From assembly GCA_963772095.1 (NCBI GenBank), contig CAVYVU010000017.1, forward strand, positions 31,402 through 95,401: DNA of 64,000 bases, given 5' to 3'. The position numbers and the translations under genes are program-made. Source of the stretch: an uncultured Thermoleophilia bacterium (lineage in GTDB: Bacteria > Actinomycetota > Thermoleophilia > RBG-16-64-13). Below the pieces are notes generated by a model. That model ran no database searches. It worked only from the letters and a program-made list of their open reading frames with translations, and was not told the DNA's origin. Below are positions 24,647 through 63,691 of the stretch, in pieces. How positions within the stretch are numbered: the stretch's first letter is position 1; each line of letters starts with the position of its first letter.

Positions 24647-26395
24647 TTACAGATCCAGGTCCCAGGTCTGACTGCTCAACGCCTTGTGACTCTCGAAGCG
24701 GTTCACATAGTCGCCCGCAAACAGGGTGACGGAGTTTGAAGTCACATCTATTCTCAGGTGGGAGTCGGGATGCCGTGCCCGCAGCACGTTGGCGAGTAGC
24801 AGCGCTTTCTCAGCGCCGTCGCCGCGGCCGAAGTTCCAGACCTCGTCGGGCTGAGCCAGGCGGCCGGGCTCGTCGTAGATCGATTCGTCCGCGAAGGACT
24901 CCACGCGCTGCACAAGCGCATCGTCCTCCAGGTCGAGGGAGCCGGCGATAGACACGGGGTTGCGCTCCAGGGCGGCCTTTAGGAAAGGAGTGGGGTCGAC
25001 GCGATTAAGGTCGCGGTACGCGTCGAAGGCCAGGTAGGCCAGCTCGTTGTCCGCGCGGATATCCTCGAGGCGGGCCAGAACTTGATCGCGAGACATGCCC
25101 GGGTCGAGACCTAGAGGCCGCTGTTGGCGGCTGAAGGTCTTGGTGGTCGCGTCCGGCAGGCGCGGTTCCACCAGCGCGAAACGGTGCAAGCCCTCTATCG
25201 CGTCGGCGGCAGCCGCGCAATTCGAGGCAAACTGCTCTTTGAGACGAGCGAATCCGTCCGGTGTGCGGATATCCACATGCTCCCGGCGGACGTATTCTTC
25301 CAGGTCGTCAAGCACCAGGCGGTTTGGCAAGGGATGCGGTTCAAAATCCTCTCCGGAGACCTCGGCCATGAGCTTCTCGCGGGTGTCGTCGTTGAAACGG
25401 TAGGGGCAGCCCTGCTCGTAGGCCAACAACTTGTCTGCCCCGATATAACGATCCACCCCGAAGTTGTGCCAACGCACCTGGAGGCAGGCCTGCAACTGGC
25501 AAGAGTGCCGGACGAAGTTCCCCAAGATCTCCGGTGAGAGCGGCGTGCGCAGGAAGTTGCGCAGTCTGGACGCAAAATGGCGATATGCGGATGGGTCGAT
25601 AGTGGCCTGCGGATAGAGCATGTGAATGCAGCCGCTTTCGTGCGCCACCACCGTGACCCGCTCGTTCTCCAGGGCGCGCCGGGCCTGGGCGGAAAGAGCG
25701 GTGCCGTTATACCACATGGTCTTCGTGACCAGACGCCGGTTGTTGGTGAGGATGCCCTCCCCCACGTCCACGAAATCCTGCGAATGCAGTGGCGTGGCCA
25801 TCAGGAAGATCTCCTTCAGCGAGATGCCGGCCACGACGAACAACGCCGCCGCGTACAACACCGCGAGCGAGACACACTCTCCAGCTCCAGTCCCGTAACC
25901 GGGCTTGAAGCGGAAGGCGTCCATCGCCTCCACGGTCTCGGTCTTCCAATAAGGGATGGTGTTGCCCTCATATTTGTCCAGGCCGAAGTGCGTGCGAATG
26001 TCGATATCGAAGTAGTACTTGTCGCCCTCGTAGCCAAAGAGCGCGTTCGACTGAGAGAGCGCCTCCGGGCTGACGTAATCCCGGAAGCGGGCCATCTCGC
26101 GTTCCTTGGTGGTGAGACCCCAGGTATCCAGGTCCAGGTTGAAGGCGTAGTGGTCCATGATGTATTGCTTGAGCCGCAGGATGCGCCGGTACGGCTTCAG
26201 CTTATCGAGGCCTGCGAACCAGGGGTCGTCGCGCCACCGCCAGAGCCGCGGCGACATGATATTTGCCAGCACCAGGCTGTACATCAGCTCCGGGAAGATG
26301 AACACTTCCATGTCCGACAACGTCACCGCCGACGAGCGGCGCTCCATGTCACGGCCAGAGATGGCAGGGGCATCGGTCACAGTTTCCGTCCGCAT
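24647..26395 (-). CDS. hypothetical 582-aa protein; possible transglutaminase-like (papain-fold) core
   Basis: long ORF with coding-like composition; GTGAGECVSLAVLYAAAL ... PLHSQDFVDVG resembles a TGase-like Cys/His/Asp segment (weak, from memory). Confidence 0.45.
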   Translation of the reverse strand: MRTETVTDAPAISGRDMERRSSAVTLSDMEVFIFPELMYSLVLANIMSPRLWRWRDDPWFAGLDKLKPYRRILRLKQYIMDHYAFNLDLDTWGLTTKEREMARFRDYVSPEALSQSNALFGYEGDKYYFDIDIRTHFGLDKYEGNTIPYWKTETVEAMDAFRFKPGYGTGAGECVSLAVLYAAALFVVAGISLKEIFLMATPLHSQDFVDVGEGILTNNRRLVTKTMWYNGTALSAQARRALENERVTVVAHESGCIHMLYPQATIDPSAYRHFASRLRNFLRTPLSPEILGNFVRHSCQLQACLQVRWHNFGVDRYIGADKLLAYEQGCPYRFNDDTREKLMAEVSGEDFEPHPLPNRLVLDDLEEYVRREHVDIRTPDGFARLKEQFASNCAAAADAIEGLHRFALVEPRLPDATTKTFSRQQRPLGLDPGMSRDQVLARLEDIRADNELAYLAFDAYRDLNRVDPTPFLKAALERNPVSIAGSLDLEDDALVQRVESFADESIYDEPGRLAQPDEVWNFGRGDGAEKALLLANVLRARHPDSHLRIDVTSNSVTLFAGDYVNRFESHKALSSQTWDLDL

Positions 26396-31588: not shown

Positions 31589-34369
31589 CTAAGGCAAGAC
31601 CGCGAAGTCCGCGGCCTTGGCCGTTTGCGGGTTCCGCTTGCTCGTGACAGCCGGGCCAAGACGCCGGGAAACGGCACGGGGGTCTTCCGGACGGCCAAGA
31701 TAATATCCCTGCCCATAATCGCAACCATAGGCGCGAAGGAGCCTGAGAGTGGCCTCGTTTTCGACCCCCTCGCCTACCACCGAGAGGCCCAGTTCGTGGG
31801 CAAGACCGATGGTGGAACGAACTATGGCCGCGTCCTGCTTGTCCACGGTCATGGTGAGGACGAACGACTTGTCGATCTTCACCGCGTCCGCTGGGAGGTT
31901 CTTGAGGTATGGAAGTCCCGATTGACCTGCCCCAAAATCGTCGATTGCCACCTGAACCCCCAGATCCCTGATGGCGGCCAGCACTTTGGTGCTGCGCTCG
32001 TGGTCGATCATGATGCTTCCCTCGGTGAGCTCCACTATCAGCCAGTCCGCGCAGCACTTGTGCCGCGCGAGCAGGCTGTTGATCATGTCGGGGAGATCCG
32101 GGTCGTCCAGATCGCGCGCAGACAGGTTGACCGAGACCCGCGTGTCAAGGCCCCGCGTCCTCCACCGGGCACATTGGGCAAGAGCTTTTCCAAGGGCCCA
32201 CTTCGCCAGACGACCTGCCAGTCCATCCTGTTCGAGGAGATCCAGAAACTCGCTGGGCAGGATGAGGCCGCGACGAGGATGATTCCATCTGACCAGGGCT
32301 TCCACCGAGGCTACCCCACCCCGGCGAAGGTCGATGAGAGGCTGGTAGTAAAGGGTGAGCTCCCCGTGCTCGAAGGCGGCATGTAGGTCGGCCTGGAGGG
32401 TGAGTCTTTCCGCAGAATGGTGGTCGTCCTCCAGTTCGTAGACCGCATAACGCGCTCCACCGGCGTGCTTGGCCGTGTACATCGCGATATCAGCAAACCG
32501 AAGAAGGCTGTCCACCGTGGAACCGTGGATCGGAAATAGGGCGATGCCCATGCTCGCCGAGAGGACCAGCTCGCGGCCCTCTACCTTGAACGAGCTTTTG
32601 AAGACCTCCAGGACCCTGAGGGCGACCCGACGGGCGTCTTCGGGATCGTGGACTGCGAGGACAATGGCGAATTCGTCTCCTCCCAGCCGGGAAAGGACAT
32701 CGACCCCGCGGATCGTCCGGCCCAGCCTACTGGCGACCAGCTCGAGGAGAACGTCTCCGGATTGGTGACCAAGGTTGTCGTTTATGTTCTTGAACTGGTC
32801 TAGATCAAGGACGCACAGCGCAAAAGGCTTGAGCTCGGACCCAGGAGAATCGATGAGCTCAGCCACTCGCTCACGGAAATGCATACGGTTCGGCAGGTTG
32901 GTCACACTGTCGTGGAGGGCCTGGAATCTGAGGGCCTCTTCCCATTGCCTGTTCTCGGTCACGTCCCTGGCGATGCATTCGTATCCAGAGAGCTCGCCGC
33001 CGCCAAAGACACCCCGCACGCTCGCCTCGAGCATTATCTCCCTTCCGTCCTTGCTCGTGAGACGAACCTCCTGCCTATCGCTGCTCTCCAGGAGGAACGG
33101 CAGGTCTCGGAAGGCAGAAGACGCCTCGCTGCCGAGGAGATCGGAGACACTCCTCTCCAGAAGCTCGCCTTTCGAATAGCCTGTCGCCCTCTCCACGGCC
33201 GTGTTCACGCTGGTGAAGCGACCGTTCTTGTCCAAGGTGAGGATGAGATCATGGGCGTTATCCACCAGGATGCGGTAGCGCCGTTCGCTCTCGAGCACGG
33301 CGTGCTCAGCCCGCCGTCTCTCCGTGATGTCCCGGAGAACGATCAGCCGTCCTGTCCTCTCACCCCCGGCCCCCAGAGGGGAAGCAAGCATGTCGAGAAA
33401 ACGCTCGCCCTCACCTTCGCCTAGGCACACCTCACAGTGGACTTCAGCCGCCGAGGTGCTATCTCCGCATTTCTCGCAATCCCCACAATCCCGAAGAACC
33501 TGTTCCATGCGTTCCCCAAGAAGCTGTGGGGTGGATGCCCCCAAGATCAGACGCGCGGCCGGGTTGGAGTCTATGACTCCGCCTTCGGGGTCGAGCACGA
33601 TAACCCCATCGAGCATCGTTTCGATGATCGCGCTTCTTGCTCGGGACATGAGACCAAAGGAGAGGTCGAGCAGCCGGAAGCGCGACAACGCAAGCGCAAG
33701 CATCCCGCCGGTCACGGCGAACGCGAACGGGGTGGGATCGAAGTCCCTGTCGGGAGCAAAGCCGGTCGCGTAAAGGAGGTTTGCTATCCAGGGCACCGCA
33801 ACGGCGATGATGATGAGAACTGCCTGCACCCGATAGTGGCGTGGGTACCGAAGGGCGGAGCGAACGAGGACCACCGCGCCCACCAGGATGAGGCTGTAGG
33901 AGTAGGCCAGGTGGACCCAGAAGAACGGCCCGTGGCTTATGGCGAGAGTGGAGAAAGGATCCGATCTGTCTGGTCCCACGGAACTCCACATAAGACCATG
34001 GAGCTGGTTCGTTGCAAGGACAAGCAGAGTGATAACCGGGACCACGAATAGGAGGGCGATCCTTTTCCTAGTGAGACCACCGTCGTGTCCCGTGTAGCAA
34101 AGTGCGAACAGCAGCCAGAAGACGGGCACGGAGACGATGCCCAGATACTCGGCACCCGCCATCGTGGTCTTCGCCGTGACGTTCGCCAACGCGCCCTCAA
34201 GGGCGTAAAGCAAGCACCAGAGGCCGACGCCGAGAAGCATGAGGGAGAAGTATCTTCGCCCTGGCGTGTTGCGGCGACGCCAGGCGGTGAAGGACAGAAT
34301 CCAGCTAAGTGCGGCGGCAGCCACAAGAGGGCCCACAAAAGGTAGGAGAGATGTCAGCCTTCCGTCCAC
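31589..34369 (-). CDS. membrane sensor protein: N-terminal multi-TM domain, two PAS domains, GGDEF diguanylate cyclase, EAL phosphodiesterase
   Basis: about 8 N-terminal TM helices; PAS (ETMLDGVIVLD, ILVDNAHDLILTLDKNG); GGDEF (RLGGDEFAIVL); EAL (ELTEGS, QVAIDDFGAGQSGL) motifs. Confidence 0.85.
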   Translation of the reverse strand: MDGRLTSLLPFVGPLVAAAALSWILSFTAWRRRNTPGRRYFSLMLLGVGLWCLLYALEGALANVTAKTTMAGAEYLGIVSVPVFWLLFALCYTGHDGGLTRKRIALLFVVPVITLLVLATNQLHGLMWSSVGPDRSDPFSTLAISHGPFFWVHLAYSYSLILVGAVVLVRSALRYPRHYRVQAVLIIIAVAVPWIANLLYATGFAPDRDFDPTPFAFAVTGGMLALALSRFRLLDLSFGLMSRARSAIIETMLDGVIVLDPEGGVIDSNPAARLILGASTPQLLGERMEQVLRDCGDCEKCGDSTSAAEVHCEVCLGEGEGERFLDMLASPLGAGGERTGRLIVLRDITERRRAEHAVLESERRYRILVDNAHDLILTLDKNGRFTSVNTAVERATGYSKGELLERSVSDLLGSEASSAFRDLPFLLESSDRQEVRLTSKDGREIMLEASVRGVFGGGELSGYECIARDVTENRQWEEALRFQALHDSVTNLPNRMHFRERVAELIDSPGSELKPFALCVLDLDQFKNINDNLGHQSGDVLLELVASRLGRTIRGVDVLSRLGGDEFAIVLAVHDPEDARRVALRVLEVFKSSFKVEGRELVLSASMGIALFPIHGSTVDSLLRFADIAMYTAKHAGGARYAVYELEDDHHSAERLTLQADLHAAFEHGELTLYYQPLIDLRRGGVASVEALVRWNHPRRGLILPSEFLDLLEQDGLAGRLAKWALGKALAQCARWRTRGLDTRVSVNLSARDLDDPDLPDMINSLLARHKCCADWLIVELTEGSIMIDHERSTKVLAAIRDLGVQVAIDDFGAGQSGLPYLKNLPADAVKIDKSFVLTMTVDKQDAAIVRSTIGLAHELGLSVVGEGVENEATLRLLRAYGCDYGQGYYLGRPEDPRAVSRRLGPAVTSKRNPQTAKAADFAVLP

Positions 34370-34537: not shown

Positions 34538-35812
34538 TTACTTCTGAAGAGGCCAGACGATGTGTCCAGCCGTGTCGATGTATCCCACCTTGGCGCTCGG
34601 ATCGAAGGGCCCCGCGCCTGTCGTCACCTCGGCAAGCCCTTGGCTATAGTCGGAGACCCAGGCATAGCGAGTGGAGATGGCGACCTTCCCTGCCGGGTTG
34701 ATGTAGTCGGCCCCGATACTCGCCAACCCTCCCGAGAAGGAGAAGGCGTGAAAGAACTGAGGCGCGATGACCATTTCCCCCGTGGTGTCGATGTAGCCCC
34801 ATCTGCTGCCGACCTTGACGGCAGCCAGACCTTCCGAGAAAGGCAATACTTCGTCGAACCGGGCGGGGATCACCATCTGTCCGGTCTCGTCCAAGTACCC
34901 CCATTTGCCCTCCACCCTCACCCCTACCCGGGACTCTGAAAACGTGCCCGCGAGGTGATAGGCAAAATCGTCGCTGGGGTCGAACTGAGCGGGGATGACC
35001 ATGACTCCCTGGGCGTTTATGTAGCCCGTCTTGCCATCCATGCGGACCGCCGCGAGGCCCTCCGAGAAGGCGTGCGCAAGATCGAACTGAGCGGGGATGA
35101 CGATCGTTCCCGTCTCGCCGATGTAGCCCATCTTGTCACCGATGTTGCGCTGAACCGCCGCCAGTCCCCCGGAAAAAGATCCTGCGACGGCATACTGCGC
35201 GGCGATGACCATCTTGCCGTGCTGATCGACAAAGCCCGACCTGCCACCGGTCTCCACCAAGCCCAGACCCTCAGAGAAGGGGCAGGCAAAATCGAACTGC
35301 AAGGGGATGGCCACCTTCCCCTCCCCGTCAACGTATCCCCACTTGCCCCCAAGCTCAACGTCGGCAAGACCTTCGGAAAAGGGGTCGGCTACGTCGAACT
35401 GCGGAGCGATTACGATCTTTCCCGTCCGGTCGATGTAGCCCCACTTGTCTTTGACCTTGACGGCGAAGAGAACGGCCGGCGAAGACACCGGGACGGTCAC
35501 ACCCGTGGAGGAGGGCGAGTCCGACGTCCTTCCGCTGGTGCTGGCGGAATTCTTGCCCGTTTCCTCGTTCCCCGAGCCGGTAATGCCGGAGCAGGCGACC
35601 CCTGTGATCCCAATGGCTATCAATAGGAAGATGGTCAGTACGGCGACCAACGCTCGGGGACCAAGACTGACTTTTTCGCGACCGGAACGCCGGCTGTGGG
35701 CAGGGGCGCCGGGACGTTGACCGGCAGCGCCGTGGCCGGAGCGACGGGCGGGGCGCCGGCCGGGGGCGACGTGGCCGGGCCGCTGGCTGCGAGCGCTGCG
35801 AATCAGTCGCAT
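34538..35812 (-). CDS. WG-repeat-containing putative lipoprotein (about 10 tandem roughly 36-aa repeats)
   Basis: repeated KWGY(I/V)DxxGKxVIxPQFDxAxxFSEGLAxV units; N-terminal hydrophobic anchor with VACSG lipobox-like site; start codon uncertain. Confidence 0.7.
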   Translation of the reverse strand: MRLIRSARSQRPGHVAPGRRPARRSGHGAAGQRPGAPAHSRRSGREKVSLGPRALVAVLTIFLLIAIGITGVACSGITGSGNEETGKNSASTSGRTSDSPSSTGVTVPVSSPAVLFAVKVKDKWGYIDRTGKIVIAPQFDVADPFSEGLADVELGGKWGYVDGEGKVAIPLQFDFACPFSEGLGLVETGGRSGFVDQHGKMVIAAQYAVAGSFSGGLAAVQRNIGDKMGYIGETGTIVIPAQFDLAHAFSEGLAAVRMDGKTGYINAQGVMVIPAQFDPSDDFAYHLAGTFSESRVGVRVEGKWGYLDETGQMVIPARFDEVLPFSEGLAAVKVGSRWGYIDTTGEMVIAPQFFHAFSFSGGLASIGADYINPAGKVAISTRYAWVSDYSQGLAEVTTGAGPFDPSAKVGYIDTAGHIVWPLQK

Positions 35813-36699
35813 TAGACGCTCGCGGGCTTGGTGATGCGCTTGACCACTCGGATCACGAGGTCGGCCGGGAGTGTGATACCGGCCTTCTCCCCGGCGATCT
35901 CTGCCATGTTGATGCCTACCACCCGGCCTTCGGCGTCGATAAGCGGTCCTCCCGAATTGCCGTGGACGAGGGCGACCGAGCTCTCTATCACCTCGTGTAC
36001 CCCGGGAAGGCGGTCGTACTCCACGTTGCGCAGAAAGGCGGTGACGTGACCAGTCGTAACCGGACGCGCAAGCACTCCGTGGTTGCCCATCGCTACCACG
36101 AAATCACCCGGGGCAAGACCCGAGAGGTCGGTGCGGAACAGTGCCGGATGAAGCCCCGCGGCCCGCACCCGAAGTACAGCGATGTCTGTCGTGGGATCTC
36201 GTCCCACAAGCACAGCGGACACGGTGGTGCCGGATGGGAGAGTCACGCGGAAGCGTTGCGCGGGCTTGTCCGTCTCTCCCGTGACCACATGGTTGTTGGT
36301 GATGATCAACCCGGTCGCGCTATAGATGACGCCGGTCCCAATGGCGTCGACCTCCTCGGTGCGCGATCGGGAAAGGACGGCCGTGACGCCCACCACGCTA
36401 GATCCGAGTTTCCGCGCGATCAAGGCGGCGTCGCCCGAAGCGAGGTGCGCGGCGGTGGTGCTTGTCTGCGGCGGGCGCAGGGTAGTCGCCGGAGCCACGG
36501 CGGTAGTCGAGGTATGCACTAGCCTCGTGATCTGCGTGGAAGACTGCCCGGCACCAGTGGCTCGAGCCGTGGTACCAGGCCCGGCGGGTGAGTGGGCCAA
36601 GTCGGAAAGCGAGCACCCGGCCAGCAAAGAGGCTAGGGCCAAGCCGAGTAGGACCAGTGTGACAACAGAACCGAGGACCGGCCAAAAAGTGCGCTTCAT
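35812..36699 (-). CDS. trypsin-like (S1 family, HtrA-like without PDZ) serine protease lipoprotein
   Basis: signal/lipobox LLAGCS; His/Asp/Ser triad context (TNNHVV, DIAVLRV, GNSGGPL); start placed at Met-40 of the ORF, so the start is uncertain. Confidence 0.65.
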   Translation of the reverse strand: MKRTFWPVLGSVVTLVLLGLALASLLAGCSLSDLAHSPAGPGTTARATGAGQSSTQITRLVHTSTTAVAPATTLRPPQTSTTAAHLASGDAALIARKLGSSVVGVTAVLSRSRTEEVDAIGTGVIYSATGLIITNNHVVTGETDKPAQRFRVTLPSGTTVSAVLVGRDPTTDIAVLRVRAAGLHPALFRTDLSGLAPGDFVVAMGNHGVLARPVTTGHVTAFLRNVEYDRLPGVHEVIESSVALVHGNSGGPLIDAEGRVVGINMAEIAGEKAGITLPADLVIRVVKRITKPASV

Positions 36700-37078
36700 G
36701 AGAACTATTGTCCCACTAACGTCGCTCGCGGTCTTACGACCCCCGGCCGCCTTGCCTCCACGCGCACTCCGATGCCGGCCAGGATGTATCCGCGGCTGCT
36801 CTTTGATACCGTTCATCAGTCCTGGACGGTTGGCGTCCGTGCATCGTCACGGCCAGCGGTCGCTCACACAGCGAAGCTCGGAGAAATCCATGCACGCGGT
36901 CTTGTTTCGAACCATCTTTGCGCGGGTCCGGGGAAGTCGGCGGCGACAAGGCGCACCCGCGTGAGGCCCGGGCGGACGCGGTGCGCCGGGTGAAGGCCGC
37001 CCGGGCGAAGTTCGCGCGAACCACGTGCGCCCGGTTGGGGGCCGCCCAGGTTAGGTCAACGCGGCCGGATGTGCCGCT

Positions 37079-37965: not shown

Positions 37966-38838
37966 ATGGCGCGCGCACTCTGGAAGGGGGCGATCAGTTT
38001 CGGTCTGGTGACGATCCCCGTCTCGCTCTACCCCGCGAAGGACCGGTCGGGGGACATGGCGTTCCACATGTTGCACAAGTCCGATCTGAGCCGGGTTCAC
38101 AACATCCGGATGGACGACGAGGATCACGAAGTCCCCTACGAGGACGTGGTCAAAGGCTACGAGTACGAAAAAGGACAGTACGTAGTGATAGGGGAGTCGG
38201 ATCTCGAAGCGGCCAATGTGGAGGCGACGCAAACCATCGACATCATGCACTTTGTCGACGGTGGGGAGATCGACATCGCCTATTACGACACCCCTTACTA
38301 CACAGAGCCCGCGAAGGTAGGTCGGAAGGCATACGCGCTGCTGCGCGAGACACTCAAGCGCACGGGCAAGATCGGGGTGGCGAAGATCATCGTCCGGGAG
38401 CGGCAGCATCTCTGTGGTGTGATCGCAGACGGCCCCGCGCTCCTCGCGTACACGTTCCGATGGCCCTATCAGCTGCGGGACGCGTCAGAATTCGACCTTC
38501 CCGGCGAGGATCTGGATAAGCTTGGAGTCAGCCCGCAGGAATTGAAGATGGCCCAGCAATTGGTCGAGGCCATGGCCACAGAGTGGGAACCCGGACAGTA
38601 CCAAGACACTTACCGCGATGACCTACTCAAGCTGATCGAGGAGAAGGTCAAGAGCGGAAAGACGACGGAAGTCTCCGAGCCACCAAAACGGCGAGCGCCG
38701 GAGACCAACGTCGTCGACATCATGTCGCTCCTCAAGCGGAGTATGGAACAGAAGAAGTCCGGGACCACCGCGCCCGAGGAGGCTGACGCAGCCCCCAGGA
38801 AAGGTAGCCCACGGGGAAGGGCCAAGAAGGCGGGTTGA
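37966..38838 (+). CDS. ku: Ku protein (NHEJ DNA end-binding)
   Basis: MARALWKGAISFGLVTIPVSLY canonical bacterial Ku N-terminus; Lys-rich C-terminal tail; GGAGGA SD upstream. Confidence 0.9.
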   Translation: MARALWKGAISFGLVTIPVSLYPAKDRSGDMAFHMLHKSDLSRVHNIRMDDEDHEVPYEDVVKGYEYEKGQYVVIGESDLEAANVEATQTIDIMHFVDGGEIDIAYYDTPYYTEPAKVGRKAYALLRETLKRTGKIGVAKIIVRERQHLCGVIADGPALLAYTFRWPYQLRDASEFDLPGEDLDKLGVSPQELKMAQQLVEAMATEWEPGQYQDTYRDDLLKLIEEKVKSGKTTEVSEPPKRRAPETNVVDIMSLLKRSMEQKKSGTTAPEEADAAPRKGSPRGRAKKAG

Positions 38839-38848
38839 GAAGTCAGCC

Positions 38849-41686
38849 GTGGCACTTGAAACCTATCGCAAGAAGAGGCACTTCGAGAAGACGCCCGAAC
38901 CGTCCGGGGCGCGAGAGCCGGCCGGCGACAGCGAGCAGGAGCCCTCACCCTCAGAGAGCGCTCCGAGGCCGGGAGCCACGAAGGGCGGACTCCTCTATGT
39001 AGTCCAGAAACACGCCGCAAGCAGGCTGCACTACGACTTAAGACTCGAACTCGACGGCGTGCTCCTCTCATGGGCCGTCCCGAAGGGGCCCTCCCTCGAT
39101 CCCCACGACCGGCATCTGGCCGCCCGGGTGGAGGACCATCCTCTCGAGTACGGCGGTTTCGAGGGGATCATCCCAAAAGGGGAGTATGGGGCCGGGACCG
39201 TCGAGTTGTGGGATCGGGGCACCTGGGAGCCCGAGGGCGACGCCCATGTGGGGCTGGCGAAGGGCGATCTGAAGTTCACTTTGCACGGAGAGAAGCTGAA
39301 GGGCGGCTGGGTGCTCGCACGCATGAAGCCTCGCGCGGGTCAAGAGGAAAAGGAGGTCTGGCTGCTCATCAAGCACCGGGATGAGTATGCCGTGGACGGC
39401 GGCAGCGAAGCCGTCCTGCGAGACCAGCCCGGTTCCGTCGCGAGCGGCCGCACTCTGGAGGAGATCACCGCGGCGGCGGGCGCGAGCGTCTGGCACGGCG
39501 ACCAACCGGCGAACGGGCAGACCGAGGCGAGGCCCGGGGAGGATTTCCTGCTCGACCCGTCCCGGGTGACCGGCGCGCGGCACGTGGCGACTATGCCCCA
39601 TTTCGTTCCCCCGGAACTTGCGACCTTGGTCAAGCGGGCCCCGGAGGGCGGCCAGTGGCTGCACGAGGTCAAGTTCGACGGATATCGGGTGCTTTCGAGG
39701 ATCGAGAACGGTTCTGTGGAGATGTACTCGCGCAACGACAAGGATTGGACCGGGACGTATCGCGTGCTGGCGGACCAATTGGCCAAGTTGCCGGTGGAAG
39801 CCGCGATGTTGGACGGCGAAGTGGTGGTACAGCTGCCAAGCGGAAAGACCAGCTTCCAGGAGCTGCAGAACGTCCTCGGCACCGCCGAAAGCGACGGGGC
39901 CGGCCGACTTCTCTACTACGTCTTCGACCTGCTGTATCTAAATGGGTGGGATTTGCTCGACTCGACTATCAAAGAGCGCAAGGCGCTCCTCAAGAGCCTG
40001 CTGAGCAGAAGCGGCGAACATGGCCGGGTACTGTTTTCGGATCACATCTCGGGAGATGGCGGCACCTTCCTCGCTGAGGCCTGTCGGCTCGGGCTGGAAG
40101 GCGTGGTCAGCAAGAGGACCGGCAGTCGTTACCGACCCGGGGCTCGGACGGGAGAGTGGCTCAAGGCTAAGTGCCTGCAGGAGCAGGAGTTCGTAATCGG
40201 CGGGTTCACGGATCCCGCCGGCAGCCGGACGGGCTTTGGCGCCCTCCTTCTCGGGACGTACGACGGCGAAAAGCTGCGGTATGTGGGGAAAGTCGGCACG
40301 GGCTTCAATGAGAGGCTCCTTCGGCACCTGGGAGATCGGCTCCGACGCATCGAGATCGAGACGCCTCCGTTCGCCGAACATCTGGCGCGGACGCCCAAGC
40401 GCGCACACTGGGTGAAGCCCGAACTGGTCGCGGAAGTAGCCTTCTCCGAGTGGACCCAGGCGGGCGACCTACGGCACCCAAGTTTTAAAGGCCTGCGCGA
40501 GGACAAGCCTCCCAGAGAGGTCGTGCGGGAGGAAGAAACTTCGGTGAGCGATGCGCCGGCGCCGCTGGTGCCTACGGAGCCTCCGCTGTCGCGGCGGAGG
40601 CCGGCGTCACAGCAGCGCTCCACGGCACGGCAAAGGTCGGCGCGGGAGCAGAGGGCGGCGCCGCGGCACAGACCGGCCGGCGTAGCGGGGCCGGGAGCTG
40701 CCGGCGTAGCGGGGCCGGGAGCGGCAGCAGAGGGAAATAAGTCCCCGGCAGATAACAGGGTGCGCGGAGTCGCACTCACGCACCCGGAACGGATCCTCTG
40801 GCCGCTCGATCAGATCACCAAGCGCGAGTTGGTCGAGTATTACTTGACAATCGCCGATCGGATGTTGCCCTATGTACTCCGACGCCCGATCTCGTTGGTC
40901 CGCTGTCCTGACGGCATCAAGGGCAGTGCGGCCACAATCCGCCAGGGCCGCGGCCGGCGCGGGCCTTGTTTCTTCCACAAACACCCGGGCCCGGATTTTC
41001 CCGGACCCTTCGAGCGGGTGACCATTGAAGAGTCCGGCGGCCCGCAGACCTATCTCACCGTCACCGAGGTCGGCAGCCTGGTTGGTCTGGCTCAGATGGG
41101 GGTCCTGGAAATCCATGTCTGGGGATCTTCATGGCCGGATATCGAGCATCCCGACACGCTGGTCTTCGACCTGGACCCAGACCCCGCGGTGGAGTGGGCG
41201 GCCTTGGCGCAAGGTGCTCGCCTGATGAAAGAAGTCCTCAGCGCCCTCGGCCTCGAAAGCTTCGTAAAGACCACGGGCGGGAAGGGCCTGCACGTGGTTG
41301 CGCCCATTGTCCCTGAGGGCAACTGGGAGGTGGTCCGCGGCTTTTGCAAGTCGATCGCCGAAGCTCTGGTCGGTCACGCCCCAGACAGGTTCACCGCGAA
41401 CATGGCCAAGGAAAAGCGAGAAGGCAAGATATACGTCGACTATGTGAGGAACACGCGGGGAGCGACCTCGATCGCTCCCTACTCCACCCGCGCCCATGAC
41501 GACGCCACTGTCGCTGTGCCGCTCCGTTGGAGCGAACTGAGCGGTCGCGTGCGACCCGATGCCTATACCATCGGCAACATTCAGGACCGGTTGCGACGGC
41601 TGAGAGGTGACCCCTGGGACGGATACCTCGAGGCCCAACGGACTCAGGGTCTCACCGCCGCAATGAAGCGTGCCGGCGGCGCTTGA
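38849..41686 (+). CDS. ligD: multidomain ATP-dependent DNA ligase D, order phosphoesterase-ligase-polymerase
   Basis: PE domain (QKHAASRLHYDLRLE); ligase motif I KFDGYRV; polymerase domain (FDLDP, KTTGGKGLHVV); 11 bp downstream of ku. Confidence 0.9.
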   Translation: MALETYRKKRHFEKTPEPSGAREPAGDSEQEPSPSESAPRPGATKGGLLYVVQKHAASRLHYDLRLELDGVLLSWAVPKGPSLDPHDRHLAARVEDHPLEYGGFEGIIPKGEYGAGTVELWDRGTWEPEGDAHVGLAKGDLKFTLHGEKLKGGWVLARMKPRAGQEEKEVWLLIKHRDEYAVDGGSEAVLRDQPGSVASGRTLEEITAAAGASVWHGDQPANGQTEARPGEDFLLDPSRVTGARHVATMPHFVPPELATLVKRAPEGGQWLHEVKFDGYRVLSRIENGSVEMYSRNDKDWTGTYRVLADQLAKLPVEAAMLDGEVVVQLPSGKTSFQELQNVLGTAESDGAGRLLYYVFDLLYLNGWDLLDSTIKERKALLKSLLSRSGEHGRVLFSDHISGDGGTFLAEACRLGLEGVVSKRTGSRYRPGARTGEWLKAKCLQEQEFVIGGFTDPAGSRTGFGALLLGTYDGEKLRYVGKVGTGFNERLLRHLGDRLRRIEIETPPFAEHLARTPKRAHWVKPELVAEVAFSEWTQAGDLRHPSFKGLREDKPPREVVREEETSVSDAPAPLVPTEPPLSRRRPASQQRSTARQRSAREQRAAPRHRPAGVAGPGAAGVAGPGAAAEGNKSPADNRVRGVALTHPERILWPLDQITKRELVEYYLTIADRMLPYVLRRPISLVRCPDGIKGSAATIRQGRGRRGPCFFHKHPGPDFPGPFERVTIEESGGPQTYLTVTEVGSLVGLAQMGVLEIHVWGSSWPDIEHPDTLVFDLDPDPAVEWAALAQGARLMKEVLSALGLESFVKTTGGKGLHVVAPIVPEGNWEVVRGFCKSIAEALVGHAPDRFTANMAKEKREGKIYVDYVRNTRGATSIAPYSTRAHDDATVAVPLRWSELSGRVRPDAYTIGNIQDRLRRLRGDPWDGYLEAQRTQGLTAAMKRAGGA
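40686..40733 (+). repeat. perfect-to-near-perfect tandem duplication of a 24-bp unit inside the ligD interdomain linker
   Basis: gccggcgtagcggggccgggagct followed immediately by gccggcgtagcggggccgggagcg (23 of 24 identical); encodes AGVAGPGAAGVAGPGAA. Confidence 0.8.
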
Positions 41687-45383: not shown

Positions 45384-45662
45384 TCATCCGCCTAGAGCAA
45401 ATGTCAGTAGCACAATATGGTCGTCGCTGTTGACCTGGATGTCGTAATCATCCACACAGAAACGACCGTTCACGTTGAAGGTGTAGTGGCCGGTAAGTTT
45501 GTCCTCGCCGGGCCTGATGATGCTCCCCTCTAATGTGGGCATCTCTCGCCTGAGCGCGGCGACAACCTCCCGGAGGCTGACGTCCCCCTCTAACTCGAAC
45601 TCCACGTTCTGTCGGCCGGCGAACTGATTGGACATCCCGAACAATTCCACGCAGTACTTCAT
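45384..45662 (-). CDS. MoaD/ThiS-family ubiquitin-like sulfur-carrier protein (92 aa, C-terminal GG)
   Basis: MKYCVELFGM...HIVLLTFALGG; its ATG overlaps the AOR stop codon in an ATGA; in the ORF track it appears fused to the AOR ORF only because the AOR frameshift puts both in the same frame. Confidence 0.7.
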   Translation of the reverse strand: MKYCVELFGMSNQFAGRQNVEFELEGDVSLREVVAALRREMPTLEGSIIRPGEDKLTGHYTFNVNGRFCVDDYDIQVNSDDHIVLLTFALGG

Positions 45663-47513
45663 GATGGCCAGAATTCCCTCGCCACGTCGTCCAGACCAAG
45701 CTCCAGAAGTTTCTTCTTGCTGGGCTTTGTCGTCTTGAGGTCCCAATCCATGGCCTCGAGAAACTCCCGGTTGATGGCATCTTGATCGATGGTCACCCCG
45801 GCGAGCGGACCGGCCTCCAAGGGCGGTTTCCCCACCAGCCTCCCAGAGACGACGTAGTCCAAGCGGATTCAGCCCTTCGCGGACGTTGAACGCCTGACGC
45901 ATGTTGGCGATTCGCTCTCCGGTCGTCAGCACTTCCTCAAGGGTCGCGTCCCACCCAGTGAGCGCATTCAAGAACTCGATCAGGACATCCACGTGGGGAT
46001 ACGTAGCGATGACGAACACACAGACCCCGAGGCTCTCTAGGGCATGATTGAAGACGTAATTGACCTTCTGGGCTTCGCCTCTGCCGCTAAATGCGCCAGG
46101 TTCGTAGGCGGGCACTGGAACGCCCGGCGGCACGAACCCGCCATGCCAACGCATATGCCGGGCGGGAGTGGCGTCCATTCTGTAACACGAGGCAAAGCCG
46201 TACTCGAACTTGGGGTTATGAGCAGGGGGTTCCTGCCCATGGATATGAATGGCATATTGTTCGGCACCCCGGCCGATCTTTTCAGCGGCGACCCTGACCC
46301 CGTCGGCCAGGATGTCGCCAAAGCCTTCCCTCTTGCCCAAGTTTTCGAGCATGGCGACGATCGACTCGTGGTTGCCCCACGTCATTTCGATGCCGCCGGT
46401 GTCCTCCTTGGTGATGACCCCGTTCTCGTAGCATTCGATCGCAAAAGCCATGACCGCACCGGCGGAGATCGTGTCCACCCCATAGCGGTTGCACACGTCG
46501 TTTGCCTTGATGATCGACTCGATATTGTCGTTGAGGCAGTTCGTCCCGAACATGCTGACGGTTTCGTACTCGGGCTTGTGGACGCCGTGTGAGTATTCGT
46601 ACTCGCCTGTGCTTTCCTTCATCAGCCCGCCACAGGCCACCACGCACCGGTGGCAACCGTACTTCCTCTGCACCCTCTCCATCACCGCGTCCACGCCGAT
46701 CTTCTCGACCCCCGGGAAGTCGATCTCTGTGACCCCGGACCAGTTCTTTACCGGGGTATCTCCGATCTTCGCAAAGGGCACGATGACGGCAACGGTGCCG
46801 AAGTTCTTGAACTCATCGATCAGCCCCACGAGTTTCCTCGCGTAGGTCTTTCGCAGTTCGGCCGCCCCCTCAGCGTCGAAGACCGGGACCGGCGTGCTGC
46901 CTTTGGCCACGATAGCTTTGAGCTTCTTGGAGCCCATCACGGCGCCAAGTCCGGAGCGCGCAGCCGCCCTGCCTTTGTCGGTCATGATCCCGGAAATGAG
47001 CGAAAGCTTCTCGCCCGCAGGGCCTATGCAGGCGATCTCGGCATCCTTGCCGAACTCGGCCTTGAGGATGTCCTCCGTATCGTGAGAGTCCTTACCCCAC
47101 ACATGTGCGGCGTCCCGGATCTCAGCAACTCCATCGACGATCGAAAGGTATACCGGTTTCGCAGACGCCCCGGTGAAGAAGACGGCGTCATAGCCGGCAT
47201 ACCGCAGGATCGGGCCGAAGTTACCTCCGGCGTTGGAATCGCCCCAACCACCGGTGAGGGGAGATTTCCCCACGACTGCAAACCTAGAGCCGCCGAGCGC
47301 GCTGGTTCCCGTGAACGTACCGGAAAGAAAGCCTAGTATGTTTTCCGGACCCAACGGGTCGACACCGGCTTTTAGGCGATCAAAGAGTACCTTGACCCCT
47401 AGGCCGTACCCGCCAAAATATTGCCGGTATAGTGCCTCGTCCAGGATTTCTTCATGCAGCGCACCCGTGGACAGGTCCACCCAGAGGATCTTGCCGCAAT
47501 ATCCGTTTGCCAT
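45659..47513 (-). CDS. aor: tungsten-type aldehyde:ferredoxin oxidoreductase (AOR family) with a single frameshift near 45865
   Basis: N-terminus MANGYCGKILWVDLSTG; pterin/4Fe-4S domain motifs; authentic C-terminus (GPLAGVTIDQDAINREFLEAMDWDLKT...LGLDDV) lies in ORF 45659..45862, a different frame from the main ORF. Confidence 0.8.
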
Positions 47514-53377: not shown

Positions 53378-54550
53378 CTACATAGACCGGCGGAGGATCT
53401 CAGCAGCATCCTCCTCATCAAGGTTTGCCAATGACGAGTCCATGCATGGCTTCATCGTGAGGAAAGCTTCTTGGGCTATGGTCTGGATCATGTCTTCGGT
53501 GACCCCGAGGCTGGATGCCGAGATGTCGAGGTCGACTTTCGCGAGAAAATCCTTGAGCGCCTCGGACGACTGCTCAGCCAGCTCGGTCTCTGTGAGGCCT
53601 TTTCCAGACCTCCCGAGCAACTGGGCGATCTTTGCGTAGCGAGCCGGATTGCTCGCGTATGTGTAACCAAGATACGCGGGTCCCAACGCCGCCATGGTCT
53701 TGCCGTGCACAGAGTCGGTGTGTCCCCCGATGCACTGGCCTATCGCGTGTATCGCGACGACGTTCGCGTTGTCGAATGCGAGCCCGGCAAGGGTGCTGGC
53801 CCACGCCATATTAGTTCTGGCTCCGAGGTTCGAGCCGTCGTGAAAGACGGCTTCAAGATTCGCGACCGTCAGCCGGATCGCTTCCTGACCCACTAAGTCG
53901 CTGAAGAGGTTGGCCCCCCTGGACAAGAACGCCTCCAGCGCGTGAAACAGCACATCGACCCCGGTTGTGGCGGTCACGTCTCCGGGCACCCCCAGCATTA
54001 AGTTGGGGTCGACGATGGACACAGTCGGATACAGACTCCTGTGGACGACGCCCGGCTTGTAGTGCCTCTGCGTGTCTGTGATGACCGCGATGCGCGTGAC
54101 TTCTGACCCTGTGCCGGCAGTGGTGGTGATGGTCACGATCGGGAGAGCGTCCCGAACCCCCACCGCCCACGGGTTCTTGCCGCCCGGCAGGTAGTCGAGG
54201 ACCGACGTGTCATTAGCAGCCGAGAAGGCGATCGCCTTCGCCGCGTCCATCGCGCTGCCGCCTCCCAGACCGACCACGAATGAGCAGTCTTCGTCACGGA
54301 CGACCTTGGCCAGTCGGTCGACATATTCCGCGCGGGGATTAGGCTCTACGCTTTCGTCGACCACCACTGCAACACCGGCTTTGCCCAGCAGATCCGTGAC
54401 CATGCCCAGGATGCCTGTTGCCCTCATGACGTCCGGATACGTTACAAGCAACGCTTTGGATCCGAGCCCGGAAACGGCTTCCGGCAGTCTCGCGACGGAA
54501 CCAGGGCCGAACACGACTCCGGTCGGCAGGCAGAAGTTGAACGGCTCCAT
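53378..54550 (-). CDS. iron-containing (group III) alcohol dehydrogenase
   Basis: GGGSAMDAAKAIA motif and Fe-ADH fold over 390 aa. Confidence 0.85.
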   Translation of the reverse strand: MEPFNFCLPTGVVFGPGSVARLPEAVSGLGSKALLVTYPDVMRATGILGMVTDLLGKAGVAVVVDESVEPNPRAEYVDRLAKVVRDEDCSFVVGLGGGSAMDAAKAIAFSAANDTSVLDYLPGGKNPWAVGVRDALPIVTITTTAGTGSEVTRIAVITDTQRHYKPGVVHRSLYPTVSIVDPNLMLGVPGDVTATTGVDVLFHALEAFLSRGANLFSDLVGQEAIRLTVANLEAVFHDGSNLGARTNMAWASTLAGLAFDNANVVAIHAIGQCIGGHTDSVHGKTMAALGPAYLGYTYASNPARYAKIAQLLGRSGKGLTETELAEQSSEALKDFLAKVDLDISASSLGVTEDMIQTIAQEAFLTMKPCMDSSLANLDEEDAAEILRRSM

Positions 54551-54667
54551 CTTGATCCTCCTGAGTTAGAGTGGGACGAACGCGGTCAGGGCCCGCTCGA
54601 TGCGGCCGGCTGCCAGATTTTCCCCTTTGCGATCAACGAGAGATTCTATCGCTCCGCAAGAAAGTAC

Positions 54668-56785
54668 TCACTCCGTACCCGGAAGCCCGGTGTGCGGTTG
54701 ATAGACGGCCGAGGCGCCTTCTAAGGCGTCGTCGAGTATTTCCGCGATATCTCGAACGTTTAGCTGCCCCTCAAGTCCCTCGTGTTTTACGCCGTCGTCG
54801 AGCATGATCTTGCAGAAAGGGCAGGCGGTTCCCACCACCTGCGCGCCGGTAGCTGCCATCTCCCGGATGCGCAAGAACTCGATAGGCTCTCCAATCTTCA
54901 TCTCACTCCACATGCGGCCCCCTCCCCCGCCGCAGCAGAAGCCGTCGCGGCCGTGGCGCTGAGGCTCCCTCAAAGACGCGCCTGTCTCGGCGATCAGGTC
55001 GCGGGGCTGCTGATAGATGTCGTTGTAGCGCCCCAGGTAGCAGGAGTCGTGATACGCCACCGTCAGACCGACGGTCGGGGTGACCGGCAGGCGACCGCTC
55101 GACACCAGCTCGAGCAGTAGTTCGGAGTGATGTACCACCTTCCAGTCGGCACCGATCTGAGGGTAGTCGTTGCGGAAGGTGTTGTAGCAATGGGGGCATT
55201 GCGTGAGAATCGCGCGGAAGCGGTACTTGTCGATGGTCTCCTTCAAGGATGCCGCCCCCACTTGGAAGAGCATTTCCTCCCCCATCCGGCGCGCGGCCTC
55301 ACAGCTGCACGTTTCTTCCTCTCCCAGCACGGCGTAGGACACCCCCGCCCGGTCGAGCAGGCGCACGATCGCCCTGGTCACGTTCTGAGAACGCGGATCG
55401 TAGCTGCCCGCGCAGCCGACGAAAAAGAGATAGTCGACGGGTTCGGGCTCGGCGCCCCCGGACGCCTCCGCGTTGTCGGATGGTTTGCCGTCAATTTGGA
55501 TCTCCGCAAGCACGGGTACGTCTAGGCCCAGCCCTTCGGTCCAAGCCATGCGGTCTTTCTGCTTCAACTGCCACGGGTTGCCCCGCATGCCCATGGACTC
55601 GAGGGCCTTGGCCGCGCTGCCGCTCAGGCGGCCTTCGTTGGTGAGGTGACGCCGGATCTCGAGCACCTTGTCGAGCTGGTTGATGGCCACCGGACAGTGC
55701 TCCACACAACTTCTGCAAGTGGTGCAACTCCAGATCTCGTCGTCTCCGATAACGTCCAGCAGGTCGGGGATATCACCCTGCGCGTGAAACCCAGGGAGCA
55801 GGCGGCGGGTTGCTTCGGCGGTCTTCTGCTGCAGGACTTGCCGGCTTTTCAGAACGATCGTCTTGGGATTCAAGGGCTTGCCGGAAGCTGTAGCCGGACA
55901 GACCTCTTCGCAACGGCCGCAGTGTGTGCAGGCATCGAGATCCTCGAGATCGGGCCAAGAGTAGGCGGTGATCGTCCCCACGCCCAGGCTCTCGACCTCC
56001 TCGATGTCCGGGACAAAGGTCATCGAACCCTTCAGGCGCCGGTCGCGCAGGAAGACATTGGCCGGAGCAGTGAAGACGTGCAAGAACTTCGTGAAGCCGA
56101 GCACTCCCACGAAGCCCAGAGTAACCAGCATGTGGAAGATCCAGAGGTACCGGTAGAACGTGCTGACGCCACCCACGCTGGCTATGTTCGCGAGGCCTTT
56201 GCCAAGTCCGTAGCCCACGAAGCTGGCGACCCTCTCATAATGGGGGAAACCAGCCACGTAGATCCGGGCGCCTTCGAGAAGGAAGCCCGTGATCCCGATC
56301 ACGAACAGCAGGATCAGGGGATAGTGGTCGTACCAGCTGCGCTCGAGCTTAGCCGGCCTGCTGATGTAGCGACGCACGGCGGCCAGGATGACACCGATAA
56401 GGAGCGCCAACCCGCCGATCTCCATGATGAAGCTGAACCCAAGATAGAAGCGGCCCATGAAGAAGTGCAGGCCAAAGTCGATGGCGAAGATGAGGATGAT
56501 GGTCCCGATGAGCAGGACCGTGAAGCCCCAGAAGATCGAAAGGTGCATGACCCCCGCGTAACGATCCTCAAGGATGGCCTTCTGCAGAAGACCGTTCATC
56601 ACGAAGTCCCACGCACGCCTCGCCATGTGATCCGTGCGTGTGGTCGGTGCCGGCTGCGCCTTCCTGTACATCCACACCCGGCGGGCAAGGTACCCTATGA
56701 GCGAGAGGACCGCGACCGCGGCTCCCGCGTACATGACGACCTCCGCCCACAGGGGCACGTTCCATAGGAGCTCTCGGGTCTCCAC
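54668..56785 (-). CDS. EtfD-like membrane-bound Fe-S oxidoreductase (DUF224/CCG-domain, HdrD/GlpC-like) predicted to couple Etf to the quinone pool
   Basis: N-terminal roughly 270-aa multi-TM domain; two ferredoxin motifs CTHCGRCEEVCP and CTTCRSCVEHCP; two CCG cysteine-rich domains (FVGCAGSYD, GFCCGGGGG); immediately downstream of etfBA. Confidence 0.75.
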   Translation of the reverse strand: METRELLWNVPLWAEVVMYAGAAVAVLSLIGYLARRVWMYRKAQPAPTTRTDHMARRAWDFVMNGLLQKAILEDRYAGVMHLSIFWGFTVLLIGTIILIFAIDFGLHFFMGRFYLGFSFIMEIGGLALLIGVILAAVRRYISRPAKLERSWYDHYPLILLFVIGITGFLLEGARIYVAGFPHYERVASFVGYGLGKGLANIASVGGVSTFYRYLWIFHMLVTLGFVGVLGFTKFLHVFTAPANVFLRDRRLKGSMTFVPDIEEVESLGVGTITAYSWPDLEDLDACTHCGRCEEVCPATASGKPLNPKTIVLKSRQVLQQKTAEATRRLLPGFHAQGDIPDLLDVIGDDEIWSCTTCRSCVEHCPVAINQLDKVLEIRRHLTNEGRLSGSAAKALESMGMRGNPWQLKQKDRMAWTEGLGLDVPVLAEIQIDGKPSDNAEASGGAEPEPVDYLFFVGCAGSYDPRSQNVTRAIVRLLDRAGVSYAVLGEEETCSCEAARRMGEEMLFQVGAASLKETIDKYRFRAILTQCPHCYNTFRNDYPQIGADWKVVHHSELLLELVSSGRLPVTPTVGLTVAYHDSCYLGRYNDIYQQPRDLIAETGASLREPQRHGRDGFCCGGGGGRMWSEMKIGEPIEFLRIREMAATGAQVVGTACPFCKIMLDDGVKHEGLEGQLNVRDIAEILDDALEGASAVYQPHTGLPGTE

Positions 56786-56794
56786 TCCGCCGTC

Positions 56795-57850
56795 CTAAGA
56801 TGAGGCCTTGCGCCGACGGATCTCCTCAGTGAGGGCGGGCACCACCGTATGCAGGTCCCCTACCAGGCCGAAGTCGGCGAAGGAGAAGATAGGGGCGTCC
56901 GGATCCTTGTTGATGGCCACGATGTAGTCCGAGGTCTGCATGCCTGCCCGGTGCTGGATGGACCCGGAGATGCCACAGGCGATGTAGAGCTTGGGCGAGA
57001 CGGTCTTGCCGGTCTGCCCCACCTGGAACTGATGGGGTCTCCATCCGGAGTCCACAGCCGCCCGGCTGGCCCCGACCGCCGCGCCGAGCTCGTCGGCAAG
57101 CGCCTGGATGATTCCGAAGCCCTCGGCACCGCCAAGGCCACGGCCGCCGGATACTATGATCGCAGCCTCCTCGAGACTGACGATGCCCGTGTTCTCGCAA
57201 ACCACGTCCACGACCGTCACAACCAGTCCACCGGGCCTGAAGTCGATCGGCAGCGGTATCACCTCAGGGCTTGCCGCTGCCTCCTCGCGGGCGAACATGT
57301 TCGACCGCACCGTCGCAAGCGCCGGCGTGGACACGGCTTCCTTCTCGACGATCACGCCTCCCCCAAAACAGGGATGGCTGGCTATCAGACGGCCGTCCGC
57401 AGCTTCCAGACCTGTGACATCCGCCAGAAGACCCACGCCCAAACGCGTGGCACAGGCGGAAGCCATGTCCCGGCCTTCCGTGGAGCCCGAGAAAAGGACC
57501 AACGCGGGAGCAGCGGCCGCGATAGCTGCCATCGCCCCGTCGGTGAAGGGACCGGGTCGAAAGACCGCGAGCTCCGGGCTCTCGACCACATAGACTCGCT
57601 CGGCACCGTAGCGGGCGGCCGCGGCCACAAATGGCCCAGCCTCAGTCGTCATGATCACCACGCTTACGGGGCCGCCTATCGTTCCGGCAAGGGCGCGAGC
57701 CCGCGTGATGCTCTCCAACGTGACATTGGCGAGTTTCCCTTGCCTGGGCTCGGCTACAACAAGGATGCCACTTTCATTACTCACGGATCTATCTCCCATA
57801 CCACGTCGGTCTCCAGTCGGGCACGAAACGGGCGTGTTGTGTTCGCTCAC
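56795..57850 (-). CDS. etfA: electron transfer flavoprotein alpha subunit
   Basis: ILVVAEP... FAD-binding C-terminal domain (YIACGISGSIQHRAGM); likely true start is the GTG near 57784 after a GGAGAT SD. Confidence 0.85.
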   Translation of the reverse strand: MSEHNTPVSCPTGDRRGMGDRSVSNESGILVVAEPRQGKLANVTLESITRARALAGTIGGPVSVVIMTTEAGPFVAAAARYGAERVYVVESPELAVFRPGPFTDGAMAAIAAAAPALVLFSGSTEGRDMASACATRLGVGLLADVTGLEAADGRLIASHPCFGGGVIVEKEAVSTPALATVRSNMFAREEAAASPEVIPLPIDFRPGGLVVTVVDVVCENTGIVSLEEAAIIVSGGRGLGGAEGFGIIQALADELGAAVGASRAAVDSGWRPHQFQVGQTGKTVSPKLYIACGISGSIQHRAGMQTSDYIVAINKDPDAPIFSFADFGLVGDLHTVVPALTEEIRRRKASS

Positions 57851-57856
57851 ACACCG

Positions 57857-63663: not shown

Positions 63664-63691
63664 GATCCTAGCCGGTTGAGGTCTGGTTTAT

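Follow-up and report, generated by a model that had tools for sequence, protein, structure and literature searches.

Within a 64,000-nucleotide stretch of DNA from an uncultured Thermoleophilia bacterium (contig CAVYVU010000017.1 of assembly GCA_963772095.1; the whole stretch is called the window below) lies a gene for a 926-residue membrane protein whose first PAS domain carries a dense patch of cysteines. The open reading frame (ORF) occupies positions 31589-34369 on the minus strand and is listed with a GTG start. Pfam assigned residues 15-236 (positions 33662-34327, minus strand, as are all domains of this gene) to the HisKA_7TM membrane domain (PF16927, 237 bits, E = 2.3e-70), which is followed by two PAS domains, a GGDEF domain and an EAL domain. 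The first PAS domain (PAS1, a PAS_4 domain; residues 254-353, positions 33311-33610) was recognized by Pfam, AlphaFold2 and Foldseek, with a PAS_4 score of 66.6 bits against a cut-off of 23.1. The second (PAS2; residues 364-470, positions 32960-33280) was found with the Pfam PAS and PAS_9 models, and the Pfam PAS match in the protein reached E = 7.5e-22. The GGDEF domain (residues 484-638, positions 32456-32920, E = 6.2e-41) has its GGDEF motif at 563 and an RxxD I-site (RGVD) at 554, and the EAL domain (residues 660-894, positions 31688-32392, E = 1.9e-74) has EAL at 690 and DDFG at 810. A motif scan added KIDK at 831, EGVE at 867 and QGY at 887 of the EAL domain. The GGDEF, RxxD, EAL, DDFG, KxD, EGVE and QGY motifs are all intact, and a bifunctional or switchable diguanylate cyclase (DGC)/phosphodiesterase (PDE) activity, acting on cyclic di-GMP (c-di-GMP), is plausible for such a sequence. 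The seven-transmembrane (7TM) domain stands directly before a PAS domain, as is characteristic of the HisKA_7TM-PAS sensor family, and this layout is common to 130 homologs. According to the 7TM-PAS-PAS-GGDEF-EAL architecture, PAS1 is located in the cytoplasm. An identical protein, with either V or M as residue 1, was absent from the public assemblies searched.

The patch falls in residues 293-315, translated as RDCGDCEKCGDSTSAAEVHCEVC, and follows the pattern C295-x2-C298-x2-C301-x10-C312-x2-C315 (positions 33425-33487, minus strand). An earlier annotation of the window made without database searches (the sequence-only reading) had drawn attention to five cysteines with CxxCxxC-x10-CxxC spacing at 33420-33490; translation of the ORF shows both the residues and the spacing to be real, and the interval was right to within a few bases. 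The minus-strand codons are TGT for C295 (33485-33487), TGC for C298 (33476-33478), TGC for C301 (33467-33469), TGT for C312 (33434-33436) and TGC for C315 (33425-33427). The first four cysteines (33434-33487) are common to the window protein and its ortholog L002 and form our candidate ligand set; C315 was found in the window sequence only and is an arginine in the four closest relatives, L002, L003, L016 and P0012.

The protein contains 13 cysteines in its 926 residues, and when these were placed at random 200,000 times, at least five fell within 21 residues in 0.078% of placements (P = 7.8e-4). Across the window as a whole, two clusters of at least five cysteines were seen compared with 0.25 expected (49 greedy non-overlapping ORFs, 1.39% Cys), the other being a ferredoxin-like stretch, CNGCYNCFLACKDEYC, in a partial ORF at the window end (63680-64000, plus strand). 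The clustering of the patch is non-random. A frameshift or assembly artefact can be ruled out as its origin: the DNA matches that of L002 and L003 codon by codon, and the indels, of 6 and 9 nucleotides, are in frame. An origin as foreign or recently inserted DNA is unsupported; the GC content at third codon positions is 0.58 in the patch and 0.73 in the gene, yet 15% of the gene's 24-codon windows have a value as low or lower.

To place the patch within the family, we used alignments of 60-120 homologs of the N-terminal 363 residues and a 56-sequence alignment of PAS1 (A1). The cysteines had been described as inserted in the first PAS domain, a description that the alignments do not bear out. 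The segment has the family's usual length to within about three residues and differs by substitutions and small in-frame indels; it replaces the F-alpha helix. At this place the family consensus is W-P-D-L-[VLI]-E-R-Y-R-D (WPDLVERYRD), an amphipathic helix with conserved columns at Trp 295, Leu 298 (in 32 of 53 sequences), V/L/I 299 and Tyr/Leu/Phe 303. The window protein has C, C, E and D at the anchors W295, L298, V299 and Y303. Because these anchors are replaced, the hydrophobic plug of the PAS1 pocket is, as judged from the alignment, gone. Across 55 family sequences, no cysteine is seen in the C295 and C298 columns and one in each of the C301, C312 and C315 columns, so that four to five cysteines together are far from the family composition.

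AlphaFold2 modelled PAS1 as a standard PAS fold (mean predicted local distance difference test score (pLDDT) 82.5, predicted template modelling score 0.73), with a five-stranded antiparallel sheet (strands E16-20, E26-29, E71-77, E84-93 and E101-108 in model numbering) and flanking helices, in agreement with the above-threshold Pfam match. Foldseek matched the model with probability 1.00 to many PAS structures, for example 3lyx, 4i5s and 2gj3. In the model, residues 281-294 form a helix, residues 295-309, which hold C295, C298 and C301, are mostly coil (pLDDT 70 and 59 in 10-residue blocks), and residues 310-316, which carry C312 and C315, form the G-beta strand (block pLDDT 89). The sequence-only reading stood to lose if its cysteines lay in a disordered loop, and this is so in part: three are in lower-confidence coil, and C312 and C315 are on a confident strand. 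These last two are i and i+3 on the predicted strand and would point to opposite faces. According to the hydrophobicity pattern of the family, position 312 shares its face with the conserved core positions 314 (I/V) and 316 (L), while position 315 lies on the face of the polar position 311 and the conserved E313. C315 is therefore predicted to be probably outside any site, because it is an arginine in the closest relatives and lies on the strand face opposite to C312. The set that the predicted geometry would plausibly allow to meet is C295, C298 and C301, on the loop over the pocket, together with the pocket-facing C312. We chose these four as candidates since they are both common to the two carriers and geometrically sensible.

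We then compared the patch within the close clade, defined by at least 55% identity and comprising six members including the window protein. The full-length 926-aa ortholog L002, from the Thermoleophilia metagenome-assembled genome (MAG) Chersky_299, is 78% identical and has four cysteines (RECGECGGECAQSPEVHCEVR), with arginine in place of C315. Only C312 is present in L003 (P0001; QEAGVGAAGAQSAEIHCEVR), from an Actinomycetes MAG, and in L016 (P0271; RKAGVDAKG..LEVHCEVR), from a frameshifted JGI contig, while the JGI fragment P0012 (RMAGIGPLGNSADIQSEVR) and the ENA fragment P0150 (ARSDVSADDDAVGDGHSEIQ) have no cysteine at all. In the DNA alignment, C295 and C298 of the window protein line up with cysteines of L002; the residues between the cysteines differ. 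Both proteins present a ferredoxin-like pattern, spaced CxxCxxC-x10-C in the window and CxxCxxxC-x7-C in L002. Loop length and sequence vary in every close relative. Judged by the 170 residues around the patch, the nearest relative of L002 is L016, which has no patch (84% identity, versus 75% to the window protein); despite this flank similarity, a CG[DE]C unit and a synonymous GGG glycine codon are common to L002 and the window. The incongruence between patch and flanks suggests parallel gain, loss with reversion, or short-tract recombination.

Among the sequences compared, only two genomes carry the feature, those of the window and L002, both from uncultured Thermoleophilia. A scan of genome contigs returned L002 and L003 as the sole orthologs above 40% identity. 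The fragments P0271 and P0150 were the only new close relatives to come from another two word-index protein searches. Among the matches listed from a metagenome scan with generic patterns, identity did not exceed 50% where the aligned segment was short or about 39% where it was longer. When PAS1 alone was searched against 1.84 billion representatives, the matches were chiefly giant multi-PAS proteins, so this search says little on orthologs; it did bring other Cys-rich PAS types to light. On the contig of L003 (L001, 6001-8780), the closest homolog in the database is broken up into three ORFs of 424 aa (7TM-PAS-PAS), 261 aa (GGDEF) and 140 aa (truncated EAL), which adjoin rve and IS110 transposase genes. 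This may be either a decaying gene or the result of long-read indel errors; L016 is also frameshifted.

Taken together, these data suggest that the patch is probably a functional cysteine site of some form, because the clustering is too strong for the family composition and the core is kept in an ortholog that has diverged by about 22-25%. A metal or redox site, of a type other than that of NreB, is plausible on sequence grounds since one full-length ortholog keeps four cysteines. We tentatively favour, at somewhat less than even confidence, a young and lineage-restricted metal site in the PAS1 cofactor pocket, formed by C295, C298, C301 and C312 and most likely of the iron-sulfur (Fe-S) kind; we infer that the four cysteines would converge there. 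CxxCxxC with a distal cysteine is the classical [4Fe-4S] ligand pattern. This cubane pattern, together with the missing hydrophobic plug, makes Fe-S the most likely single form of the site. In favour of it are also the cytoplasmic location of PAS1, the AOR, EtfAB and Fe-S/CCG proteins encoded in the window, and the precedent of NreB (PMC13478379) and OrpR (PMC8359166), whose PAS domains bind Fe-S through cysteines of the same segment. The full proposal is a redox or O2 sensor caught shortly after its birth, in which a degenerate pocket helix, a CxxCxxC loop and a pre-existing strand cysteine together would hold a [4Fe-4S] or [2Fe-2S] cluster; stated in this specific form, it is doubtful.

The proposed mechanism would run as follows. 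In a small Thermoleophilia clade, the F-alpha helix that closes the PAS pocket would have been replaced by a Gly/Ala-rich loop. The loop of the window protein and L002 carries CxxCxx(x)C, which with the older, pocket-facing G-beta C312 could supply four thiolates to a cluster. If oxidation or O2 caused the cluster to be lost or converted, the conformation of PAS1 would change, and this change, relayed via PAS2, might shift the balance between c-di-GMP synthesis by the GGDEF domain and hydrolysis by the EAL domain.

The most serious alternative, possible though rather unlikely, is that the patch has no specific function: the cysteines would be tolerated in a fast-evolving, relaxed loop, and PAS1, its F-alpha helix lost, may only relay for the 7TM domain. 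Several observations weigh against a metal site or favour this alternative. The motif C..C-x(5-20)-C..C occurred in none of 120 distant homologs of the 7TM-PAS1 region, anywhere in the sequence. None of 59 PAS1-like metagenome segments among the matches listed had the patch, and the equivalent stretch held two cysteines at most. The patch has just two carriers among the six close-clade members, leaving four of the five close relatives without it while the rest of PAS1 is conserved. The third cysteine of L002 is shifted by one residue relative to C301 (301/302). Also in the Cys-free relatives the loop is Gly/Ala-rich and fast-evolving, which fits relaxed constraint, and the loop that bears the cysteines is modelled with low confidence (pLDDT about 59-70). 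C315 is unique to the window sequence, and the distribution of the patch is at odds with the flanks. Finally, no neighbouring gene ties the GGDEF-EAL protein to redox metabolism.

Drift of this kind would, on the other hand, have to produce three to four cysteines within 10-20 residues, which is very unlikely given the 0-1 Cys per column in the family and the P value of the clustering, and it does not account for a CG[DE]C unit that two orthologs have retained at a divergence of about 25%. Several exposed thiols in a cytoplasmic protein are, moreover, normally metal-binding or selected against. The absence of the cysteines from homologs, which had been named as grounds for giving up the sequence-only reading, thus applies in part: distant and most close relatives are without them, while one ortholog keeps four. 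Neither this distribution nor the low loop confidence conflicts with a lineage-specific site, because AlphaFold2 models no metals and its alignment lacks the cysteines.

If the four cysteines do bind a metal, it could also be zinc, since sequence alone cannot separate Fe-S from Zn. In this reading, which appears unlikely, the cysteines would form a Zn(Cys)4 site with a structural or regulatory role, holding the remodelled loop stiff as a clamp like a zinc knuckle and possibly signalling by the release of Zn when the thiols are oxidized. In cytoplasmic proteins of bacteria, Zn(Cys)4 sites are most often built from pairs of CxxC. Both carriers have CxxCG knuckles (C298-EK-C301-G in the window protein, C295-GE-C298-G in L002), and a clamp would make up for the hydrophobic anchors that are missing. 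Regulation by Zn is known among c-di-GMP enzymes, as in the CZB-domain DGCs (PMC8846402). The CxxC...CxxC quartet, however, needs C315, which is not conserved and lies on the other strand face. C312 and C315, which make up the second pair, are placed by the model on a regular strand and not on a turn, where they would be in the knuckles of Zn ribbons or rubredoxin. Contiguous CxxCxxC ligands are also more typical of a cubane Fe-S cluster than of mononuclear Zn.

The remaining alternative is a metal-free thiol/disulfide switch, in which CxxC pairs would answer to oxidants or to the thiol buffer's redox state by switching back and forth from dithiol to disulfide. CxxC is the canonical redox-active dithiol motif, a redox-active cysteine in the PAS domain of ArcB is comparable in principle, and the flexible loop could accommodate disulfide formation. 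Disulfide control is also established for the c-di-GMP enzymes PdeC and HmsC/D (PMC8846402). We nevertheless consider such a switch improbable, as the known c-di-GMP examples are periplasmic and the patch is cytoplasmic, two cysteines would suffice where there are four to five, and the four cysteines kept in L002 are better explained by a tetrahedral or cluster site.

The gene is surrounded by genes for an aldo-keto reductase, a WG-repeat protein, a trypsin-like protease and Ku/LigD. The genes for the WG-repeat protein (424 aa) and the protease (334 aa) share the strand of the GGDEF-EAL gene and lie directly upstream of it (34538-36816, minus strand); they may form an operon, as the stop of the first gene abuts the start of the second at 35812. 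After Ku comes a LigD of full length that has phosphoesterase, ligase and primase-polymerase domains, and the two (37966-41686, plus strand) make up a bacterial non-homologous end joining pair. The anaerobic gene content with which the sequence-only reading had associated its sensor is borne out for AOR (45384-47513) and Etf (EtfA/EtfB, 56795-58633), and the window also encodes a Fer4/CCG Fe-S oxidoreductase (54668-56785). Together with an Fe-dependent alcohol dehydrogenase, the oxidoreductase, EtfA and EtfB genes form a cluster (53378-58633, minus strand) with AOR nearby. The arrangement suggests an Etf-linked anaerobic aldehyde/alcohol metabolism, possibly by way of electron bifurcation. Elsewhere in the window, a 2557-aa ORF (7282-14955, minus strand) contains two GH94 supersandwich stretches, a partial match to the GH94 catalytic domain and a glucoamylase-like domain, and resembles a cyclic beta-1,2-glucan synthase or phosphorylase. 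A 582-aa ORF (24647-26395, minus strand) had no Pfam match at E <= 1e-5.

A 2022 census of the sensory inputs of c-di-GMP enzymes lists heme, flavin, hemerythrin, CZB-zinc and periplasmic disulfides, with no Fe-S or Cys-cluster PAS domain (PMC8846402), and no c-di-GMP enzyme with an Fe-S PAS domain came up in our full-text literature searches. Redox state and O2 are known to act on c-di-GMP by way of heme, flavin, hemerythrin and periplasmic disulfides. Cluster binding by the four cysteines would bring a new class of cofactor into c-di-GMP signalling and would make this protein the first diguanylate cyclase/phosphodiesterase regulated by Fe-S. PAS1 would then represent a third independent origin of an Fe-S-binding PAS domain, after NreB and OrpR, for which the Cys-free sisters are natural controls. 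The Cys-free, C312-only, four-Cys and five-Cys proteins would then form a rare natural series in the building of a cofactor site. If no cluster is bound, the patch cautions that a motif resembling that of NreB can arise in a fast-evolving loop without homology.

The sequence-only reading had compared the spacing CxxC-x10-CxxC with the [4Fe-4S] motif of the oxygen-sensing PAS kinase NreB. Two types of NreB are known, which are evolutionarily unrelated despite their similar motifs (PMC13478379). In Staphylococcus carnosus, NreB binds a [4Fe-4S] cluster via CX2CX11CX2C, while the PAS domain of Bacillus licheniformis NreB, a sulfide sensor, binds [2Fe-2S] via C63, C66, C78 and a labile sulfur ligand (PMC13478379). 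The patch does occupy the general PAS region of the NreB Fe-S ligands, the segment from E/F-alpha to G-beta in our model (PMC13478379). The comparison with NreB fails on spacing, position in the fold, conservation and architecture. The motif here is CX2CX2CX10CX2C, as opposed to CX2CX11CX2C (S. carnosus) or CX2CX11C (B. licheniformis). An NreB-like quartet would need C315, with its arginine counterparts in the closest relatives and its position on the G-beta face opposite to C312. The NreB cysteines are highly conserved across 116 homologs (PMC13478379), and those of the patch are poorly conserved, being absent from all 120 distant homologs and, among the close relatives, present as four in one, as one in two and not at all in two. 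NreB is a soluble PAS-histidine kinase paired with NreC, whereas the 7TM-PAS-PAS-GGDEF-EAL protein has no adjacent response regulator.

A sequence search of the PDB returned weak matches to generic PAS domains, among them 9wex_A (E = 0.0062), whose Cys-bearing region overlaps the patch. We regard 9wex_A as the PAS domain of B. licheniformis NreB whose structure is given in PMC13478379, since its cysteines fall at the reported C63, C66 and C78 given a 10-residue numbering offset. When A1 was aligned with 9WEX by hhalign (probability 95%), no cysteine column coincided, the alignment having low confidence in this stretch. NreB C63 fell on E291 and C66 on L294, in the helix before the patch, and C78 fell one to two residues after C301.

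The resemblance to S. carnosus NreB thus consists in a cytoplasmic PAS domain with cysteines in the E/F-alpha segment and two CxxC pairs about 10-11 residues apart (PMC13478379), and in the same proposed logic, whereby an O2- or redox-labile cluster would control an output domain. The S. carnosus protein differs by its x11 spacing and HisKA_3/HATPase output, where the window protein has x10, GGDEF-EAL and a 7TM anchor; in the latter, the second CxxC is on the G-beta strand, with its cysteines on opposite faces and C315 not conserved. The two have no specific sequence kinship other than the generic PAS fold. B. licheniformis NreB similarly has its cluster ligands in a loop-rich segment between B-beta and G-beta, with C78 close to C301 as aligned above, but its output domain and signal differ, no cysteine column is in common, and the patch is present in just two of the six close-clade members.

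A motif resembling NreB CX2CX11C was seen in giant multi-PAS kinases, where C-x10/11-C-x2-C-P recurs in PAS domains within the same E/F-alpha segment as the patch (P0233, residues ~325-350, GKKCYEAYHCRKERCELCPS; P0209, residues ~490-512, CYRAYENRDDVCEDCPVALC). Judging by its spacing, this looks like an uncharacterized Cys-rich PAS type.

The true homologs of the N-terminal 363 residues belong to the HisKA_7TM-PAS family of Chloroflexota, Actinomycetota and archaea. These proteins, mostly histidine kinases, are 30-45% identical over 7TM and PAS1, but they have the WPDLVERYRD F-alpha helix, no Cys patch and mostly kinase outputs. In output, the closest parallels are DosP, AxPDEA1, RmcA, AxDGC2 and CdgF, PAS-GGDEF-EAL proteins whose turnover of c-di-GMP is tied to O2 or redox state through the cofactor of a PAS domain (PMC8846402, Table 3). 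Structures of DosP were among the Foldseek matches of the PAS1 model. The cofactor of these enzymes is, however, heme or flavin, bound by His, Trp or Asn.

OrpR, a sigma54 activator of Desulfovibrio vulgaris, carries a redox-sensitive [4Fe-4S] cluster in its PAS domain via C52, C61 and C65 (PMC8359166). Its cluster is likewise bound by PAS cysteines around 50-65 residues into the domain (PMC8359166). OrpR is a soluble transcription activator with three fully conserved cysteines spaced C-x8-C-x3-C, and on the published spacing the patch differs from this triad and does not belong to the OrpR type. In principle the candidate site in PAS1 is similar to the NreB and OrpR sensing domains, and it belongs to neither family; should it be real, the c-di-GMP enzyme would carry a Cys-cluster PAS sensor with an origin independent of both.

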